64,000 nucleotides of DNA from Candidatus Yonathbacteria bacterium RIFCSPHIGHO2_02_FULL_44_14 (GCA_001823535.1 MHUT01000011.1:9864-73863); one strand, 5' to 3'; counted from the first letter of the stretch, positions 2,689 to 14,717 are shown. Program-made: numbers and translations. Notes: a model not told the origin generated them from the letters alone.

Positions 2689-4005
2689 TTACGTAGTTTG
2701 CTCCATAGATGATACTTCCGGCAACACTTTTACTCGCTCTATTCCAACACCAATAGCGCGCAAACGGTTCTCTATGTCCTCATAGCCACGATCAATCGTA
2801 GTGTCCACATTATGTATGACGGACTCCCCTTTTGCAACTATTGCTGCAATAACGAAAGCAAGCCCCGCGCGAAGATCGGGACTCTCGAGTTTGCGACCGC
2901 GAAGCTCCGTCTTCCCGCGCACGAGCGCGCGATGCGGATCCATCATGGTAATGGACGCACCCATGGAGGACAAGGACTCGGCGTAGTTGAGGCGTCCTTC
3001 GAAAATAGTTTCAAACACAGTACTCTCGCCGTCTGCTTGAGTAAGGAGCACCGTCATTGGCGCTTGCAAATCTGTGGGGAAGCCAGGATACTCGTGCGTC
3101 TTAATATCAATCGGCATGATTTTGGATGGCGCACGCACAATAATTTCAGTTTTCTTTACTTCAATGGGAATGCCTGCGCTACGCAATGCCTCGATAGGTG
3201 ATTCTAGATGGGCAGGCTCGCAATTTGTAATATGAAGCTCGCGTGCGGCAAGCGCACCTAAAATAAGGAAGCTACCAGCCTCGATGCGATCGGGCATCGT
3301 TTTATACACGCGCCCCTTGCCTGTTAAAAGTTTCCCTCCTTTGATCGTGATTGTTGGCGTACCCGCACCCGAAATATTTGCGCCACATTCATTTAAAAAA
3401 CCTGCAAGATGGGCTATCTCCGGCTCCATTGCGGCATTTTTAATAGTTGTTATGCCTCTAGCAAGGACGCCTGCCATCATAAATGTTTCAGTAACTGTCA
3501 CACTTTGATTTTTAAGAAAAAACTTTGCGCCATTTAACCCGCCTTTCGCTTCAACAATATACGAGCCATCCTTGATATATACCCTTGCGCCCATCTTCTC
3601 AAAACCATCAACAAAAAGATCAAGTGGGCGCGCTCCAATAACACAACCACCCGGATGAGGAAAAGATACTTTCCCATACCGCGCAAGCACCGGACCAGTG
3701 AGTACAATCGATGCGCGCATTCGCCTCGCTATCCCTGGAGAAAGTTCTGTGGCAAAATCAGGGTGGAGAGAAACAGCGTAGGTGCCATGCTTCGTTTTCG
3801 AAACTTCTGCTCCCATGTCCTTCAATAAATCAAACATGCGAAGCGTGTCATTGATTTCTGGAATGTTAGTAAAAGTGACGGTGTCGCGGAAAAGTACGGC
3901 CGCAGCGATTGCTTTGAGCGCGGCGTTCTTTGCGCCGGTCACTTTCACGACACCGTGAAGTTTCCGCTGTCCTCCGAAACCATTAATAACAAATGTGTTG
4001 CTCAT
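2689..4005 (-). CDS. murA: UDP-N-acetylglucosamine 1-carboxyvinyltransferase
   Basis: 438 aa; KVTGAKNAALKAIAAAVLF N-terminus and overall MurA/EPSP-synthase fold signature. Confidence 0.9.
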   Translation of the reverse strand: MSNTFVINGFGGQRKLHGVVKVTGAKNAALKAIAAAVLFRDTVTFTNIPEINDTLRMFDLLKDMGAEVSKTKHGTYAVSLHPDFATELSPGIARRMRASIVLTGPVLARYGKVSFPHPGGCVIGARPLDLFVDGFEKMGARVYIKDGSYIVEAKGGLNGAKFFLKNQSVTVTETFMMAGVLARGITTIKNAAMEPEIAHLAGFLNECGANISGAGTPTITIKGGKLLTGKGRVYKTMPDRIEAGSFLILGALAARELHITNCEPAHLESPIEALRSAGIPIEVKKTEIIVRAPSKIMPIDIKTHEYPGFPTDLQAPMTVLLTQADGESTVFETIFEGRLNYAESLSSMGASITMMDPHRALVRGKTELRGRKLESPDLRAGLAFVIAAIVAKGESVIHNVDTTIDRGYEDIENRLRAIGVGIERVKVLPEVSSMEQTT

Positions 4006-4105: not shown

Positions 4106-4504
4106 ATGGGTACGCCTGTTTGCTTCAAAAGTGTTGCACTTGGTGTCCTCTTTTTCATAACGATACTTGTTCTTTCTCAGGAAACATACAGAGGTACAGA
4201 GGATACTTCTCCTAGCCTTGCTTTCTCCATCTCAAAACACTACAGCACTACAGAAAAAAAGAAAATTGAAGAAAAGCGGTGTACAGATTTTGGAAAGGAT
4301 GTAATTGCAAAACTAAAAGCAAGCGAGACAACTCGTGACGCATTCTTTGTTGAAATATCTGAATTTTTATCTGAAGAATTTTCGTTGGAAATCTTCGACA
4401 TAGTAATCAATGACGAGGACCAGGTTTGTATTCATTACATGCGCCACCTAGAACCAAAGCACCCAAAACCAAATGAAAAAACCTCAGTAACCCGTCTCGT
4501 GTAG
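4106..4504 (+). CDS. hypothetical secreted protein (signal peptide/TM at N-terminus)
   Basis: Own promoter and strong RBS; N-terminal hydrophobic segment VALGVLFFITILVLS; no family recognised. Confidence 0.45.
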   Translation: MGTPVCFKSVALGVLFFITILVLSQETYRGTEDTSPSLAFSISKHYSTTEKKKIEEKRCTDFGKDVIAKLKASETTRDAFFVEISEFLSEEFSLEIFDIVINDEDQVCIHYMRHLEPKHPKPNEKTSVTRLV

Positions 4505-9843: not shown

Positions 9844-11283
9844 TTAAATTACTTCCACCATCACCATGTTCGTTCCTCCGGTATGCCCAAATGGCACGCC
9901 AGCCGCCACTACCACCTTGTCTCCCTTCTTTGCAAGCTTATGCTTGAGTACATAGGCACGAACAACCTTCATGACATCAGAAACATTCGTAAAGTTGTCA
10001 ATACGTGCGGGAAAACACCCAAACACAAGTCCGAGCTGTCGTATCACATGCCCCTTCGGGCTCATGGCAATGACCGGCTGTGCTGGGCGGTAGCGCGACA
10101 CCATACGTGCAGTGAGTCCCGACTCAGAAAGCGCGATAATCGCTTTTGCGCCGACGGTCGACGCAGTACTCACCACAGAAAAAGTAACAGCGTCCACGAC
10201 ATCCCTACGATGAGTGCTATTGTCAGTTTCAGATGTGAATATGTCGCCATAAAGCGCCTCGTGGTGTGGATAATTCTTTTCTGCAATCTCTGCAATATCG
10301 GACATCATCTTTACGGTTTCAACCGGGTATTCACCGAGTGCGCTTTCTTCTGAAAGCATTACTGCATCTGCTCCATCAAGAATTGAATTTGCGACATCGG
10401 ATACTTCAGCACGTGTTGGCACGGGCGACTTGATCATCGACTCCATCATTTGTGTTGCAACAATGACCGGCTTGCCAGCAACATTACATTTCTCAATAAT
10501 CATTTTTTGGAGAATCGGCACCTCTTGCGCAGGAACCTCTACTGCAAGATCTCCGCGCGCAATCATCACACCGTCAGTTTCAGCAATAATCGAATCGATG
10601 TTCTCGATTGCTTCACCTGTCTCGATTTTTGCGATAATTTTTGCTGTTGATTTTGCTTTTGTAAGAATAGCGCGCAGCTCACGAATATCGGATGCACGCC
10701 GGACAAACGAGAGTGCGACATAGTCGACCTTATGTTCAATACCAAAAAGAACATCCTTTTTATCTTTTGCGGTTAGACAACTGATCTTGAGGGATACCCC
10801 AGGGAGGTTTACCCCTCGACGACCCTTGATTTCGCCACCCACAATAATACGACATTTGATTTCAGTACCCACCACAGAGATTACATCAAACCGTTTTTTC
10901 CCGTCATCAAGCAAAATTGCATCACCTTTTTTAAGTTCCTTTGGCAAATCAGCATAATTCACATATGCCTTGCCTTCATCACCAAGGCATTTTTTTGTAG
11001 TGAGCGTAAAAATACCTCCCTTTTTAAGCGTCACACGCTCTTGATAAAGATCACCGATGCGAATCTTTGGACCTGAAAGATCTTGCAGGATTGCAGTTGG
11101 GGTGCCAAGCTTTTCTGCTGCAGCGCGAATATTTTTCACTTGCACAAGCGCACCCTCGTGAGTACCGTGAGAAAAATTCAAACGACAAACATTCATTCCC
11201 GCTTTTATAAGATTGGTTAGCATTGCCTCGCTTTCAGATGCGGGGCCAATTGTTGCTACGATTTTCGTCTTTTTCATTGTCAT
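9844..11283 (-). CDS. pyk: pyruvate kinase
   Basis: MKKTKIVATIGPASESEAMLTNLIKAGMNVCRLNFSHGTHE; start trimmed to ATG 11283 (MTMKK), the upstream ORF extension is unlikely. Confidence 0.9.
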   Translation of the reverse strand: MTMKKTKIVATIGPASESEAMLTNLIKAGMNVCRLNFSHGTHEGALVQVKNIRAAAEKLGTPTAILQDLSGPKIRIGDLYQERVTLKKGGIFTLTTKKCLGDEGKAYVNYADLPKELKKGDAILLDDGKKRFDVISVVGTEIKCRIIVGGEIKGRRGVNLPGVSLKISCLTAKDKKDVLFGIEHKVDYVALSFVRRASDIRELRAILTKAKSTAKIIAKIETGEAIENIDSIIAETDGVMIARGDLAVEVPAQEVPILQKMIIEKCNVAGKPVIVATQMMESMIKSPVPTRAEVSDVANSILDGADAVMLSEESALGEYPVETVKMMSDIAEIAEKNYPHHEALYGDIFTSETDNSTHRRDVVDAVTFSVVSTASTVGAKAIIALSESGLTARMVSRYRPAQPVIAMSPKGHVIRQLGLVFGCFPARIDNFTNVSDVMKVVRAYVLKHKLAKKGDKVVVAAGVPFGHTGGTNMVMVEVI

Positions 11284-11512
11284 GGCGGTGATGTTTAAAT
11301 TCAGATAAGTAAGCCTGAATATTACCAAAATTTTGCAATTTCCCCAAATTTTGTTATTATGCAACCTGTATTCCACGTAGCCGAATCAGCTGATTCCGAA
11401 TTAGTAAATTCGTGTCTTGGACATAAACATCAGCAGGTTCACATCTTGGATGAAAGCTTGGCCATAATCGTGGCAAATCCAAATATGCTTTTCGTAGAAT
11501 CAAATCGTAAAT

Positions 11513-11611
11513 ATTCCGCGGTAGCTCAGTGGCAATAGGAATTAGCCAAGCGACTGGTTTTAACAGTCGAGAACGAGCTACGGGAATCCAGGGTTTATAT
11601 AGAAGTTAAAT
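11513..11611 (+). repeat. 99-bp tandem repeat unit 1: degenerate 5' half of tRNA-Asn (pseudo-tRNA) plus ~45 nt unrelated tail
   Basis: Begins attccgcggtagctcagtgg identical to tRNA-Asn 5' end; D-arm cannot close; no T-arm or 3' acceptor. Confidence 0.8.
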
Positions 11612-11710
11612 ATTCCGCGGTAGCTCAGTGGCAATAGGAATTAGCCAAGCGACTGGTTTTAACAGTCGAGAACAAGCTACGGGAATCCAGGGTTTATATA
11701 GAAGTTAAAT
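11612..11710 (+). repeat. 99-bp tandem repeat unit 2 (1 mismatch vs unit 1)
   Basis: Near-identical to 11513-11611 (gaacgagc vs gaacaagc). Confidence 0.8.
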
Positions 11711-11712
11711 AT

Positions 11713-11784
11713 TCCGCGGTAGCTCAGTGGTAGAGCAAGCGACTGTTAATCGCTTGGTCGTAGGTTCGATCCCTACCCGCGGAG
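11713..11784 (+). tRNA. tRNA-Asn (anticodon GTT)
   Basis: Manual fold: acceptor tccgcgg/ccgcgga, D arm gctc-agtggta-gagc, anticodon arm agcga-ctGTTaa-tcgct, T arm gtagg-ttcgatc-cctac, discriminator G; CCA not encoded. Confidence 0.85.
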
Positions 11785-11798
11785 CAAAAAAACAATAG

Positions 11799-11828
11799 CA
11801 CCCCTTCCTCGGGGTGTTTTTTGTTTTG
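11799..11828 (+). terminator. rho-independent terminator after tRNA-Asn
   Basis: caccccttcctcggggtg hairpin followed by ttttttgtttt. Confidence 0.6.
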
Positions 11829-11836
11829 AATAGCTT

Positions 11837-11858
11837 CCGCGCGGGTAGGGATCGAACC
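11837..11858 (-). repeat. inverted copy of tRNA-Asn 3' end (T-arm + acceptor)
   Basis: Minus strand reads ggttcgatccctacccgcgcgg, matching the last ~20 nt of the tRNA; no D or anticodon arm, so not a tRNA. Confidence 0.7.
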
Positions 11859-11993
11859 GAAGTCCCACCATTTTGGGAATGAGAGTATTCTCGAAGACCT
11901 ACAAAATGGACGGCCTCGACAGTAAGGGGAGGTGTCACTAAATCTTTTCCGCGCATGCAATGCTCGTACAAAAGTGCAATGACTACTTATTAT

Positions 11994-12692
11994 CTATTGA
12001 GTAGTGGATGCGACAGTAAAGGTTGCCGTTCCCGAGGCAAATGATGCCCAATCTTCGGTCTGATCAGAGCTATGTGAACGGCCGTATATCCAAACAGAAT
12101 ACTCCTTGTCGAGGATTAAAGCTGGGCCGTCATACACCTTGGAAATAGTAGGACCAGATGAAGTAAAGGGTGTTAGCATTCGCTGCGAACTACTTCCATC
12201 ACTAGGCGCCACAATAACCCAGTAGCCTAGCGATTGAGATGAGCCACCTGCTGGCTGCCACCTAAATGTTGGGTTTAATGAACCGGAAGATTCAACAACA
12301 ATAGGAGTTTGGATTGGGAACGTTCCAATAAGAGTTGATGTTGAGGTTCGAGTAGCCGGTCCTTCTGTGCCTAAAGCACTAACTGCTGTCACATAATATA
12401 AGTACTCACCTACAGCATAACTGGAAACTGGTTGCGAACTAGTGCGAGATAAATACCACATGGAACCTGGGCAACCTGTTGGCCCACCACCTAGCGAGGT
12501 GAGGACCCATGTTCCGTATGTTCTTTTGGTAGAGCAAGAGGTAATCTCTGATGGATCAGTAAATTCTCCAACAAGATTAAAAGTAGAATCCTGTGGTCTT
12601 TTTTGATACAAGCGGAATGCGCTCACATTGGAGAGATTATTTATGTCAAACTTAAAATTTAAACTTTCTGATGCCTTCACCCAATTGCTCAC
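11994..12692 (-). CDS. hypothetical Ser/Thr/Gly-rich domain, in frame with upstream pilin across one TGA; GTG start with GGGAG RBS if independent
   Basis: 232-aa ORF; same reading frame as 12711-13289, separated by TGA + 6 codons. Confidence 0.4.
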   Translation of the reverse strand: MSNWVKASESLNFKFDINNLSNVSAFRLYQKRPQDSTFNLVGEFTDPSEITSCSTKRTYGTWVLTSLGGGPTGCPGSMWYLSRTSSQPVSSYAVGEYLYYVTAVSALGTEGPATRTSTSTLIGTFPIQTPIVVESSGSLNPTFRWQPAGGSSQSLGYWVIVAPSDGSSSQRMLTPFTSSGPTISKVYDGPALILDKEYSVWIYGRSHSSDQTEDWASFASGTATFTVASTTQ

Positions 12693-12710
12693 ACCGCTCC
12701 CTATGCCGAA

Positions 12711-13289
12711 TCATACCCTAAGTTCCGTTGGTGCGGGCAAGGAAGCTATTGGAGGGGGTATGATTTCATCAGTTGTTGTTGCTGTTGCGGGTTGGGATGT
12801 AACAATCTCGGTAGAAGATGCAAAGCGCCACCCGCTTGCGCCAGGATTTGCGAGAGCCAAGAACTTTCCACTTGCCTTTTCGTAATACTGGCAGGAAGAA
12901 CCACCGTCACCACAGGCAGCCTGATTACCATTCTGTTCAAGGAAAGAAATAACTTCATAGTCATTCCCTTGGCGAGAATAATGAAATTTGTGTTCATCAA
13001 CATCAATGGGGTCCGAAGGAATAGCGGATATATATTTTGGTACAAGTCCGGGGATCCATTCTGGATTGCCGTTCAAATATTCAACACCATCTCCACCAGG
13101 AGGTAATCCTCCGTTGTCATTTTGATAGAGTGCAACAGCATTCGTAATCTGGTTTACACTAGCTACTCGCTGAGCATCACGCGCTTTCTCACGAGCAGTG
13201 TTCAATTTTGCGATAACAATAGAGCTCAAGATTCCAACAATTGCAACAACAACAAGGATTTCAATAAGTGTAAATCCCCAATCGTGCAA
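12711..13289 (-). CDS. type IV pilin-like protein (prepilin N-terminal methylation motif)
   Basis: MHDWGFTLIEILVVVAIVGIL: class III signal G|FTLIE followed by hydrophobic helix. Confidence 0.75.
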   Translation of the reverse strand: MHDWGFTLIEILVVVAIVGILSSIVIAKLNTAREKARDAQRVASVNQITNAVALYQNDNGGLPPGGDGVEYLNGNPEWIPGLVPKYISAIPSDPIDVDEHKFHYSRQGNDYEVISFLEQNGNQAACGDGGSSCQYYEKASGKFLALANPGASGWRFASSTEIVTSQPATATTTDEIIPPPIASLPAPTELRV

Positions 13290-13478
13290 CCTATCCTTAA
13301 TTTTTTTGATATGGCTTCTGCGCTACAATCTCTCTTTGATGTTTATTTCTTTTGTCATAGTTATATAATTATAACATAATGGACTCAAGCCCCTAATGTT
13401 CGCAAGTCATTTCCGCAACGGCATTTTCTAGCCTTCTCTCAATCCCCTTCCAATTCAAAGTTCTGAACTTGTGTACTA

Positions 13479-14717
13479 TTGGAAACATCAAAACAAAAGC
13501 ACCTTAGTGCAACGCGTTTGTTTTCGTTGCGTGGCTGTGGTTTAATTGACAACATGACAATCGAAACAATACCGGAGGCACAGGATCTTGAAAAAGATAA
13601 ACTTATTGATCCCCGCGCGTATGAAGTCGCTGACTGTGGAAATTATGCGGAGATCGTAAACACGCTTACCAAAGAAAATTTACTCAACGAGGAGATCGAG
13701 CGAGTACAAGATTGCTACAAAACGACCCTCGAACATGCGGTATGGATGACCGAGAAAGACTGGGAGATGCTTACGGTCATGGACTGCTATGACAACCGGA
13801 CAGCGCACCACTGCGTAGAGACGCTCCGCATCGCAGAAGACAGGATCGAGCGATTCAAGGCGGGTGGAAAAAAGTTTTCTGAATTAATAAAAGACGAGGA
13901 GGTCCCACTCGATGAATTTTTTCGCGCATGCTTGTTCCATGACATCGGGAAATGCCTTATTCCACGCGCTATTTTAAATAATTCCTTTTTCGATGAAGAT
14001 TTCGACACTCAGCTTTGTAACGACATTTTTCGAGGCGGCAAAAAAGAGTTTCTCGCTGCTATTGAAAAAACAACAGGACATATTTTCGAGGGGGAAGGAA
14101 ATGACATGGATCTACGTGAATATTTGCGAACGAACCACGTTCACACGATGCGGTATGTTCCTGCAATAGAAATGTTGAGCGAGGAGGATATTAATGTTGC
14201 GCGCGAGCGCTTTCCGAGTCTCAATTTTTCAAAAGCGACCCTTGCAGATATTCTTGAATTTCACGAAGAAAATTCGGAAAATATATTACTTGCTCAAGGG
14301 TTTGATATGGCGGCCAATATTGCGGGTAAGCACCACAACTACCGCAAACTAGAGATGCGTTTCCCTGTGAGTACAGACATCCTCGGGGTGACCATCGCAC
14401 TCGAGGAGCTCCTCACACTCTCAGACATGAAGCAAGCGTTGTCAGCGAAACGCTCTTACAAAAACTCTCTGAATTCACCATTGATCCTTCATAATCTTAT
14501 ATTTGAGGCAGAGAGGCACGAGATCAGTCCTGTCATAACAAGTTTGTGGGTCGAGCAAGAGCTTGCGCTTATTTCCTCCGAAGAACGTCGAGGGCATGAT
14601 GAGCAAACAATCTTTGCGATTCATGAATGCGAAGAATTCATAAAAAAACACCAATCGCTGGTTGAAGATTTTGTTAATGCTATCCAAAACAAAACTGTTG
14701 AAACGAGTACTTACTAG
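13479..14717 (+). CDS. HD-domain metal-dependent phosphohydrolase family protein
   Basis: H...HHCVETLRIAED then ACLFHDIGKCLIP (HD motif); true start may be MTIETIP at 13554. Confidence 0.5.
   Translation: METSKQKHLSATRLFSLRGCGLIDNMTIETIPEAQDLEKDKLIDPRAYEVADCGNYAEIVNTLTKENLLNEEIERVQDCYKTTLEHAVWMTEKDWEMLTVMDCYDNRTAHHCVETLRIAEDRIERFKAGGKKFSELIKDEEVPLDEFFRACLFHDIGKCLIPRAILNNSFFDEDFDTQLCNDIFRGGKKEFLAAIEKTTGHIFEGEGNDMDLREYLRTNHVHTMRYVPAIEMLSEEDINVARERFPSLNFSKATLADILEFHEENSENILLAQGFDMAANIAGKHHNYRKLEMRFPVSTDILGVTIALEELLTLSDMKQALSAKRSYKNSLNSPLILHNLIFEAERHEISPVITSLWVEQELALISSEERRGHDEQTIFAIHECEEFIKKHQSLVEDFVNAIQNKTVETSTY

Follow-up and report, generated by a model that had tools for sequence, protein, structure and literature searches.

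We analyzed the tRNA-Asn locus in a 64,000-nucleotide (nt) stretch of DNA from Candidatus Yonathbacteria bacterium RIFCSPHIGHO2_02_FULL_44_14 (GCA_001823535.1, MHUT01000011.1:9864-73863), in which two tandem 99-nt units resembling the 5' half of the tRNA stand upstream of the intact gene. The whole stretch is called the window; all positions are those of the window, and L-numbers denote loci of relatives. The intergenic region in question is bounded by a pyruvate kinase gene on the minus strand, which ends at about 11290, and by an open reading frame (ORF) of 232 amino acids (aa), also on the minus strand, with its stop codon at 11994. On the plus strand this region contains, in this order, a promoter, a 147-nt leader, the two 99-nt units, tRNA-Asn(GTT) and a bidirectional terminator. 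The promoter scan gave a single candidate for the leader, the units and the tRNA, a sigma-70-like TTGCAA-16-TATTAT with an upstream TG (11333-11360, plus strand); in relatives, the sequence directly 5' of tRNA-Asn matches the block 11326-11373 with 94% identity. The long, variable leader that follows (11374-11507, plus strand) is homologous to the tRNA-Asn leader of L010 (blastn, 11429-11504 and 11376-11396 at 89-100%) and contains a palindrome, GAATCAGCTGATTC, detected as a self-inverse match at 11383-11396. The authentic tRNA-Asn(GTT) (11713-11785, plus strand) is called by ARAGORN, matches the Rfam tRNA model with 72 bits and shares 100% identity with its counterparts in relatives. U1 pairs with A72, the acceptor stem is palindromic, and the 3' end reads GGAGCAA; the CCA is not encoded. 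A two-strand terminator scan and folding identified a bidirectional intrinsic terminator (11797-11828, both strands) at the apex of a long palindrome. Scans for promoters and terminators found no promoter inside the 99-nt units and one promoter and one terminator for the whole array. Because this single conserved promoter and the terminator flank the leader, the units and the tRNA, all of them should share one primary transcript. Folding this 461-nt transcript as a whole gave no information on the order of folding.

The units had been described in a first-pass annotation of the same DNA as two tandem repeats of 99 base pairs (bp). TRF and a repeat search agree with this; only the proposed phase, with starts at 11513 and 11612, was a few bases off, and the units begin at 11508 and 11607. 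TRF reported a period of 99 nt with 2.3 copies and 99% matches between 11508 and 11730. Module 1 (11508-11606, plus strand), which was recognized by the repeat search and by its fold, and its near-identical tandem copy module 2 (11607-11705, plus strand) differ at one base, G11575 versus A11674. A 25-nt segment, consisting of TAAATAT and tRNA nt 1-18, occurs three times at a spacing of 99 nt (11508-11532, 11607-11631 and 11706-11730, all on the plus strand); the third copy was found in the repeat family search.

Each module follows the same general plan: a leader with tRNA nt 1-18, a 15-nt insert, tRNA nt 26-38 and two complementary strands that are encoded by the module itself. In module 1 the leader TAAATAT is followed by tRNA nt 1-18 (11515-11532), the P2 insert (11533-11547), tRNA nt 26-34 with the palindromic hairpin P3 (11548-11569), the 3' strand of helix P1 (11575-11587) and an AU-rich linker. 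The insert after nt 18, CAATAGGAATTAGCC, is purine-rich and closed by GGC/GCC (P2). The following AAGCGACTG corresponds to tRNA nt 26-34 and is common to each unit and the tRNA. The first complementary strand makes the 5' stem and loop of the anticodon arm palindromic: GTTTTAA-CAGTCG after AAGCGACTG closes the anticodon 5' stem into the hairpin CGACTG-GTTTTAA-CAGTCG (P3), which the first-pass annotation had already read in the sequence together with the 18-nt tRNA start. The second strand pairs with nt 1-16 and generates the 12-17-bp helix P1. In the window this strand is GAGCTACGGGAAT (11575-11587), five bases past P3, and it is complementary to the unit's own tRNA-like start ATTCCGCGGTAGCTC. 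The 3' part of the unit was previously called unrelated sequence. This description misses the complementarity of GAGCTACGGGAAT to the 5' end. The predicted fold is a three-way junction with a long closing P1, a small P2 with a purine-rich loop and P3; a T arm is absent.

With this predicted fold the module cannot be a working tRNA. The earlier view that the units are not bona fide tRNAs was borne out by ARAGORN, which called only 11713-11785 in this region and neither of the 99-nt units. In an Rfam cmscan search (E≤10) the tRNA model matched only the authentic gene, and no tRNA match occurred in 11508-11712. The same search over 10500-13000 returned, besides the tRNA, only chance matches and no ribozyme, T-box, rtT or other leader family; the chance matches (MIR9486, mraW) are due to the long palindrome around the terminator. 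A hammerhead or another ribozyme, which a three-way junction in tandem repeats might bring to mind, was rejected because the conserved cores are absent and Rfam is negative. A T-box-like reading, in which AAC lies opposite GUU in P3, was rejected as well: there is no antiterminator, and the pairing is a mere palindrome.

We compared the syntenic tRNA-Asn locus of about 25 relatives, which were collected via homologues of pyruvate kinase, a single genome scan and a scan with one relaxed DNA pattern. The pyruvate kinase of the window places it in the Patescibacteria near Candidatus Yonathbacteria/Nomurabacteria; its best database match is 93% identical. A single module is present between promoter and tRNA-Asn in L011/L090 (pyruvate kinase 84% identical to that of the window), in L089 and in L091, and at the same position in L013/L096 (80%) and L100-L103 (77%). 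L104 (75%) has three tandem modules, which are mutually diverged, and the module of L094 is a truncated copy. The number of modules per locus thus ranges from 0 to 3, and the position is shared by at least seven related lineages of Patescibacteria. Loci of tRNA-Asn without a module are L001, L005-L008, L010, L093 and L095. Presence and absence occur within one species: the pyruvate kinase proteins of L093 and L094, two contigs of different sample origin, are identical (P0004); the leader of L093 runs directly into the tRNA, and the same leader in L094 runs into the module. The contig of L004, the closest relative with flanking sequence, ends exactly at tRNA nt 18, which is the branch point between module and tRNA. 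The relaxed DNA pattern found three loci. A narrow pattern, GTAGCTCAGTGG..GCGACTGG..CAGTCG, had no match in metagenome or genome contigs, which is no proof of absence; the pattern is too specific because most modules have GCGACTGT. Viral contigs scanned for the P3 hairpin contained none.

Several lines of evidence support a structured RNA on the sense strand. The module is 92-99 nt long in all lineages, and for 9 of 11 units the fold of minimum free energy is this three-way junction. The complementarity in P1, i.e. between the variable 3' strand and nt -3 to 17, exceeds that of 1000 dinucleotide shuffles in 7 of 10 modules, with p-values of ≤0.001 in three and 0.01-0.025 in four of them; the value for module 1 of the window is 0.019. 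A covariance model (R1) built from four modules recovers all 10 full modules at 49-105 bits, including module 1 with 68 bits and module 2 with 64.6 bits, and has no match on authentic tRNAs or on about 50 other loci. The alignment from this model was used instead of one from MAFFT, which misaligned the variable 3' strands. It has 81% of its cells paired compared with 25-39% when the partners are slid, in an alignment that is itself fitted to the structure. On the same alignment pairing amounts to 98.6% in P3 and 96.7% in P2. Four pairs are changed on both sides, a number that is reached in 31 of 500 shuffles (10 sequences from about seven lineages). An example is L013, the tRNA-Asn of which differs from the others (TCCGTGG...GTGCGCTGTT). 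The module of L013 carries the same differences, and its partner strands compensate them: C5-G is replaced by U5-A in P1, and two pairs are changed in P3. Mean pairwise identity over seven lineages is 0.90 in the 5' part, 0.82 in the P2 insert and 0.85 in P3; it drops to 0.63, which is near baseline, in the variable 3' part. The P2 insert has no counterpart in the tRNA; it can therefore not be maintained by conversion from the tRNA, and yet it is 82% conserved. Furthermore, the sense fold is more stable than the antisense fold in 9 of 10 modules (sums of -265.8 versus -232.6 kcal/mol), because several pairs are G-U on the sense strand. Together, the support for a structured RNA is real but modest.

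On balance we favor, with somewhat better than even confidence, the explanation that each 99-nt unit is one copy, in tandem with the other, of a pseudo-tRNA leader module that is conserved across lineages, derives from the 5' half of tRNA-Asn and gives rise to an excised, self-sequestering leader RNA. The modules would be co-transcribed with tRNA-Asn from the promoter at 11333-11360 and removed in the course of maturation. The AU|U junction 5' of the tRNA recurs before every module, so that RNase P, acting at these repeated junctions, and endonucleases, acting in the AU-rich linkers, should free the modules and are the likely agents of release. We infer both RNase P cleavage and excision from the sequence. 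Each module would fold independently, with the strands that are identical to the tRNA locked by the complements encoded in the module; locked in this way they should neither compete nor mispair with the 3' half of the authentic tRNA. The number of modules would change by unequal recombination or slippage between the 25-nt repeats, and the single mismatch in 99 nt suggests that the pair in the window is a recent expansion from one copy. Candidate roles for the released RNA are a mimic of tRNA-Asn, an aid in processing or nothing at all. The first-pass annotation had offered a processed small RNA as its alternative, and this putative product appears to fit the units better than the integration scar that it had put first.

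A number of observations weigh against the favored explanation. P1 is not significant in L089, in L100 and in unit 2 of the window (p=0.097), where A11674 in place of G weakens the helix. The covariation is thin, since the sequences are few, the 5' strand is nearly invariant and the alignment is fitted to the structure. L014 keeps only a degenerate, 70-nt version of the module, and the module has been lost without obvious consequence in L001, L005, L010, L093 and L095, which fits a dispensable or selfish element; this repeated loss argues that the module is dispensable. Also, the identity of nt 1-18 with the tRNA could be explained by repeated unequal crossing-over and not by selection, and the complementarity could be compatible with a palindrome that functions at the level of DNA.

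Part of these findings would be expected if the units were a neutral, decaying pseudogene of a tandem tRNA-Asn duplication, with a structure that is residual palindromy from fold-back repair and a similarity that is kept up by unequal crossing-over. The modules are missing from many close relatives, their 3' part is unconserved and their copy number is unstable; P1 is decayed in L089 and L100 and the whole module in L014, and the pseudo-5' end in L100 has four substitutions. We still regard neutral decay as improbable. It does not account for an 82% conserved P2 insert without tRNA counterpart in surroundings where the leaders are unalignable, nor for a P3 that is 98.6% paired with two compensated pairs, for the systematically greater stability of the sense strand or for a length that is constant at 92-99 nt across lineages. 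Another reading is an RNA with a function in trans, a mimic of tRNA-Asn present in one to three copies per tRNA, which would be a decoy or regulator of a factor that recognizes the acceptor and D region or the anticodon arm; examples of such factors are a tRNA-targeting toxin, the Asp/Asn transamidation machinery and RNase P. A mimic would explain why nt 1-18 and 26-38 are strictly retained and track the cognate tRNA, why P1 is about as long as the stack of acceptor and T-stem, why the U1-A pair and the AU|U 5' junction occur in every module, and why the P2 loop is conserved; in module 1 of the window P1 is even followed by U-CCA. This proposal is entirely inferential, however, and the module has no linked partner gene. 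Other lineages do not retain the CCA-like tail, the anticodon is buried in a stem, and many relatives have lost the module. We consider a mimic quite improbable.

Another explanation comes from small genes that are found at the junction in question. In L015 (Lloydbacteria) and L113 (Kaiserbacteria) a gene takes the place of the module at the junction after tRNA-Asn nt 17-18: a pseudo-5' fragment of tRNA-Asn is followed within a few bases by an ORF of 82-83 aa with a GIY-YIG domain (Pfam, 1.6e-16), which terminates at the TAG formed by nt 8-10 of the intact tRNA (..IPR*). L114 has the same design at tRNA-Gln, and in L018 a GIY-YIG ORF lies between two tRNA-Gln genes. These small nuclease genes of about 80 aa (L015 484-791, L113 1440-1752, L114 1396-1749 and L018 3433-3675) are located directly 5' of tRNA genes; all four loci that were inspected abut a tRNA 5' end, and in three of the four a pseudo-5' fragment of that tRNA comes before the gene. 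Phage provide a precedent: the GIY-YIG homing endonuclease SegB recognizes and targets a tRNA gene motif, and tandem amplification of tRNA plus segB via microhomology at the tRNA 5' end has been documented by experiment (PMC2330249, PMC13096335). Hence the units might be remnants of a mobile cassette that entered the D-loop of tRNA-Asn after nt 18 and brought a replacement leader with nt 1-18. They would be an ORF-less relative or a decayed derivative of the GIY-YIG cassettes, the upstream pseudo-5' end would be the displaced copy of the host, and the array would result from repeated insertion or nuclease-stimulated amplification. In support of a cassette, the GIY-YIG ORFs of L015 and L113 occupy the same nt 17-18 junction, and L114 and L018 are alike at tRNA-Gln. 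The distance from the promoter to the first pseudo-5' end in L091 and L100 equals that to the tRNA in module-free alleles, and the authentic tRNA of L091 and L100 has a different leader; the presence/absence polymorphism has clean end points, and the SegB system gives a precedent for the mechanism (PMC2330249, PMC13096335). We nevertheless judge such a cassette to be possible rather than probable. The window has no GIY-YIG homologue (tblastn with the L015 protein found nothing in it at E≤1e-3), and outside the tRNA-derived part the interior of the module is not similar to the GIY-YIG cassettes. This interior is itself tRNA-derived (nt 26-38 and, in L090, a decayed acceptor 3' strand), which speaks for a gene duplication and not for foreign cargo. 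Furthermore, the 80-aa proteins comprise the catalytic domain only, their site-specific cleavage is putative, and the comparison is based on four inspected GIY-YIG loci. The modules may share an origin with the cassettes in that a nuclease-induced break at the tRNA 5' region was followed by duplication and fold-back repair synthesis; alternatively, they could be ORF-less relatives of them. The broader claim, that the modules and the small GIY-YIG genes both belong to a class of cassettes, not yet described, that replace tRNA 5' ends in Patescibacteria, is also tentative and in our view unlikely. Members of such a class may lodge after nt 18, keep the tRNA intact by supplying a fresh leader with nt 1-18, use the strong tRNA promoter and leave a pseudo-tRNA 5' end behind; the module RNA may then be a non-autonomous passenger or a tRNA-Asn mimic with an activity of its own. 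Least probable is that the upstream units are classical attL/attR scars of a deleted, integrase-borne island. The locus is indeed an integration hotspot in relatives, and prokaryotes commonly contain tRNA fragments that stem from integrating elements (PMC9897764). But all documented islands and scars at this locus are located at the 3' end of the tRNA and have identities of 7-16 nt, while the units copy the 5' end, and they share a common fold in at least seven lineages without an adjacent recombinase in any of them. In the window only 74 nt separate the 25-nt repeats, and no recombinase homologue is present anywhere in the 64 kb, in agreement with the earlier remark that an integrase is not nearby. 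The occupied and empty pair L094/L093 is equally expected from recombination between the 25-nt repeats and does not discriminate in favor of an att scar. The scar reading of the first-pass annotation fails for the upstream units because related genomes carry the same element as a conserved leader. We return, then, to a leader module, which is not described in Rfam and is not an ordinary integration scar.

The situation is different downstream of the tRNA, where the interpretation of a tRNA copy as an integration scar can be retained. The reported minus-strand copy of the T arm and acceptor is real: the T-loop, T-stem and acceptor 3' strand of the tRNA recur in inverted orientation beyond the terminator (ggttcgatccctacccgcgcgg on the minus strand), where the repeat search identified a self-inverse match at 11837-11858. 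The arms 11756-11781 and 11840-11865 are 88% complementary with an exact 19-nt core, and the hairpin that includes them has z = -9. Equivalent inverted copies occur in L011, L013, L091, L104, L015 and L113, and each matches the tRNA of its own lineage. The inverted copies of relatives are often split by a small hairpin insertion, with a direct copy about 100 nt further. In the window the inverted copy is followed by a decayed mini-element or island scar (11859-11954, no strand assigned), recognized by its homology to a scar in L006. Its motif tacaaaatggacggcctcgacagtaaggggaggtgtcac (11900-11938) has a homologue in the L006 scar, the end of which is formed by a direct copy, CCCTACCCGCGGAACC; L089, L091 and L104 have a related motif. 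Behind this motif the window has TTCCGCGC (11947-11954), which resembles an acceptor but is degenerate. For the minus strand of 11836-11960 we considered a permuted tmRNA and a tRNA with an intron; both were rejected, as ARAGORN and Rfam are negative and the fold does not surpass that of shuffles (z of -0.7).

The relatives indicate what uses this site. Their genes for large serine recombinases (Resolvase, Recombinase and Zn_ribbon domains, about 500 aa) end inside the 3' end of tRNA-Asn; the cargo behind them varies and consists mostly of restriction-modification systems. Identity between two of these recombinases is only 28%, and at least two families use the same tRNA-Asn 3' end. Islands with differing cargo at this 3' end were seen in L105 (2200-9790, compared with L109), L001, L007/L106, L008 and L095; among the genes they carry are those for MvaI/BcnI and CfrBI restriction-modification systems, for an MmeI-type enzyme and for an AAA ATPase. 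Comparison of L105 (occupied) with L109 (empty) defines a 7.5-kb island, the junctions of which share only the 7 nt GGAGCCA. Short shared junctions of this kind are characteristic of serine integrases. In empty alleles, additional short direct copies of the tRNA 3' end, CTACCCGCGGAGC(CA), are present. A second att copy was sought in the window beyond ORF232 (the 232-aa ORF), the pilin gene and the HD gene, and none was found. From these sequence comparisons we read the downstream copy as the probable inner end of a decayed mini-element or scar at the att site that is used by the large serine recombinases of relatives, and as a feature separate from the units. The palindromic acceptor stem TCCGCGGA might let a serine recombinase act in either orientation and so give an inverted copy. 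The tRNA ends in GGAGCAA in the window (11779-11788), L011, L013, L091 and L104; alleles that carry or recently carried islands have GGAGCCA, the crossover core. GGAGCAA may make the site in the window refractory to integration.

The tyrT operon of E. coli contains tandem 178-bp repeats, which give rise to rtT RNA and are represented by the rtT family in Rfam. These repeats are downstream of the tRNA and carry its 3' end; they are co-transcribed and processed out, and their copy number is thought to vary by unequal crossing-over. They are probably the closest analogue of the modules, since the window locus also has tandem repeats in a tRNA transcription unit, each with a segment identical to the tRNA. 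In contrast to the tyrT repeats, those of the window are upstream, carry the 5' half together with complementary strands that form a three-way junction and come from another phylum; moreover, the units have no Rfam match to rtT. T-armless or truncated tRNAs, such as nematode mitochondrial tRNAs and mascRNA, are similar to the modules in that they have an acceptor-like helix with D-like and anticodon-like hairpins and no T arm. They differ from the modules in the anticodon, which in the module is paired in a 6-8-bp palindromic stem, with a loop that varies from 3 to 7 nt between lineages; this pairing and the variable loop exclude decoding. The tRNA fragments left by integrating elements (PMC9897764) resemble the locus in having a partial tRNA copy beside an intact gene, and the region 11837-11954 belongs to this category. 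The upstream modules do not; they copy the 5' half, lack an integrase, are structured and conserved and are located between promoter and gene. Genes of the SegB type (PMC2330249, PMC13096335) are comparable insofar as a GIY-YIG gene occupies the position of the module in sister lineages and overlaps the tRNA 5' end. They are phage systems, however, while the proteins from the Candidate Phyla Radiation have about 80 aa with the catalytic domain only and a putative homing role, and the window has no GIY-YIG gene.

In one clade the single-copy tRNA-Asn hosts at least three kinds of parasites: its 3' end takes up serine-recombinase islands, its anticodon loop a group I intron and its 5' end GIY-YIG genes. 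The same locus carries a conserved pseudo-tRNA module of variable copy number that is absent from RNA databases. Candidate-phyla bacteria have tiny genomes with usually one gene per tRNA, and whatever resides within the transcription unit of a tRNA should thus be tightly constrained. Should the module prove to be a processed RNA that acts in tRNA maturation or as a mimic, it would represent a new RNA family. If it is a relative of the cassettes, it would represent a new route by which mobile genes enter tRNA genes from the 5' side, and its importance would be greater if the link to GIY-YIG 5'-end cassettes proves general. The modules also have a practical consequence in that they break short-read assemblies exactly at tRNA nt 18 and are at risk of being mis-annotated as integration-derived tRNA fragments.

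Some additional features were observed at these loci. In the window the -35/-10 region of the promoter is spanned by an imperfect 18-nt direct repeat, TTACCAAAATTTTGCAAT / TTCCCCAAATTTTGTTAT (11322-11357), and this block is kept in relatives. The tRNA leaders of the window (11383-11430) and of L010 contain a motif, GAATCAGC(A/T)GATTC...CGTGYCTTGGRC, with a perfect 14-nt palindrome; in L011 (about 4440-4470) and L013 (about 3125-3150) the same GAATCAGC...CGTGYCTTGGRC motif adjoins direct copies of the tRNA 3' end, like the end of an element. Between the start codon of pyruvate kinase and the tRNA promoter, L010 (5760-6000), L093 (300-460) and L094 have an insertion of about 150-240 nt with inverted repeats, CCCGTTAGAAGT...ACTTCTAACGGG, which is absent from the window and has the appearance of a miniature inverted-repeat transposable element. 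The pseudo-tRNA 5' fragments next to the GIY-YIG genes are interrupted by insertions of 32-39 nt that are palindromic and GC-rich (CCYGCCTCG...GAGGCGGG type; L015 493-528, L113 1447-1485, L114 1407-1439 and 1448-1479); these insertions resemble one family of small hairpin elements, and the genomes that contain them are otherwise AT-rich. In L013 (3348-3594, minus strand), and identically in L096, tRNA-Asn is split in the anticodon loop between nt 35 and 36 by a group I intron of about 245 nt, which matches Rfam RF00028 with 73 bits, above the gathering score. ARAGORN misses this tRNA-Asn because the intron splits the gene; the module is still present upstream.

The segment of the window that follows the locus (11994-14717) contains ORF232, which has no Pfam match, a type IV pilin-like gene (N_methyl, T2SSG) and an HD-domain gene, before a VIT1-like gene. 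These neighbors had been regarded as accessory, and the case for this is weak: the segment varies between lineages, but its genes are not clearly island cargo, and L093 has a homologue of ORF232 directly after the tRNA. In L109 and L011 the space between the tRNA and the VIT1-like gene is filled by two M14 peptidase genes.

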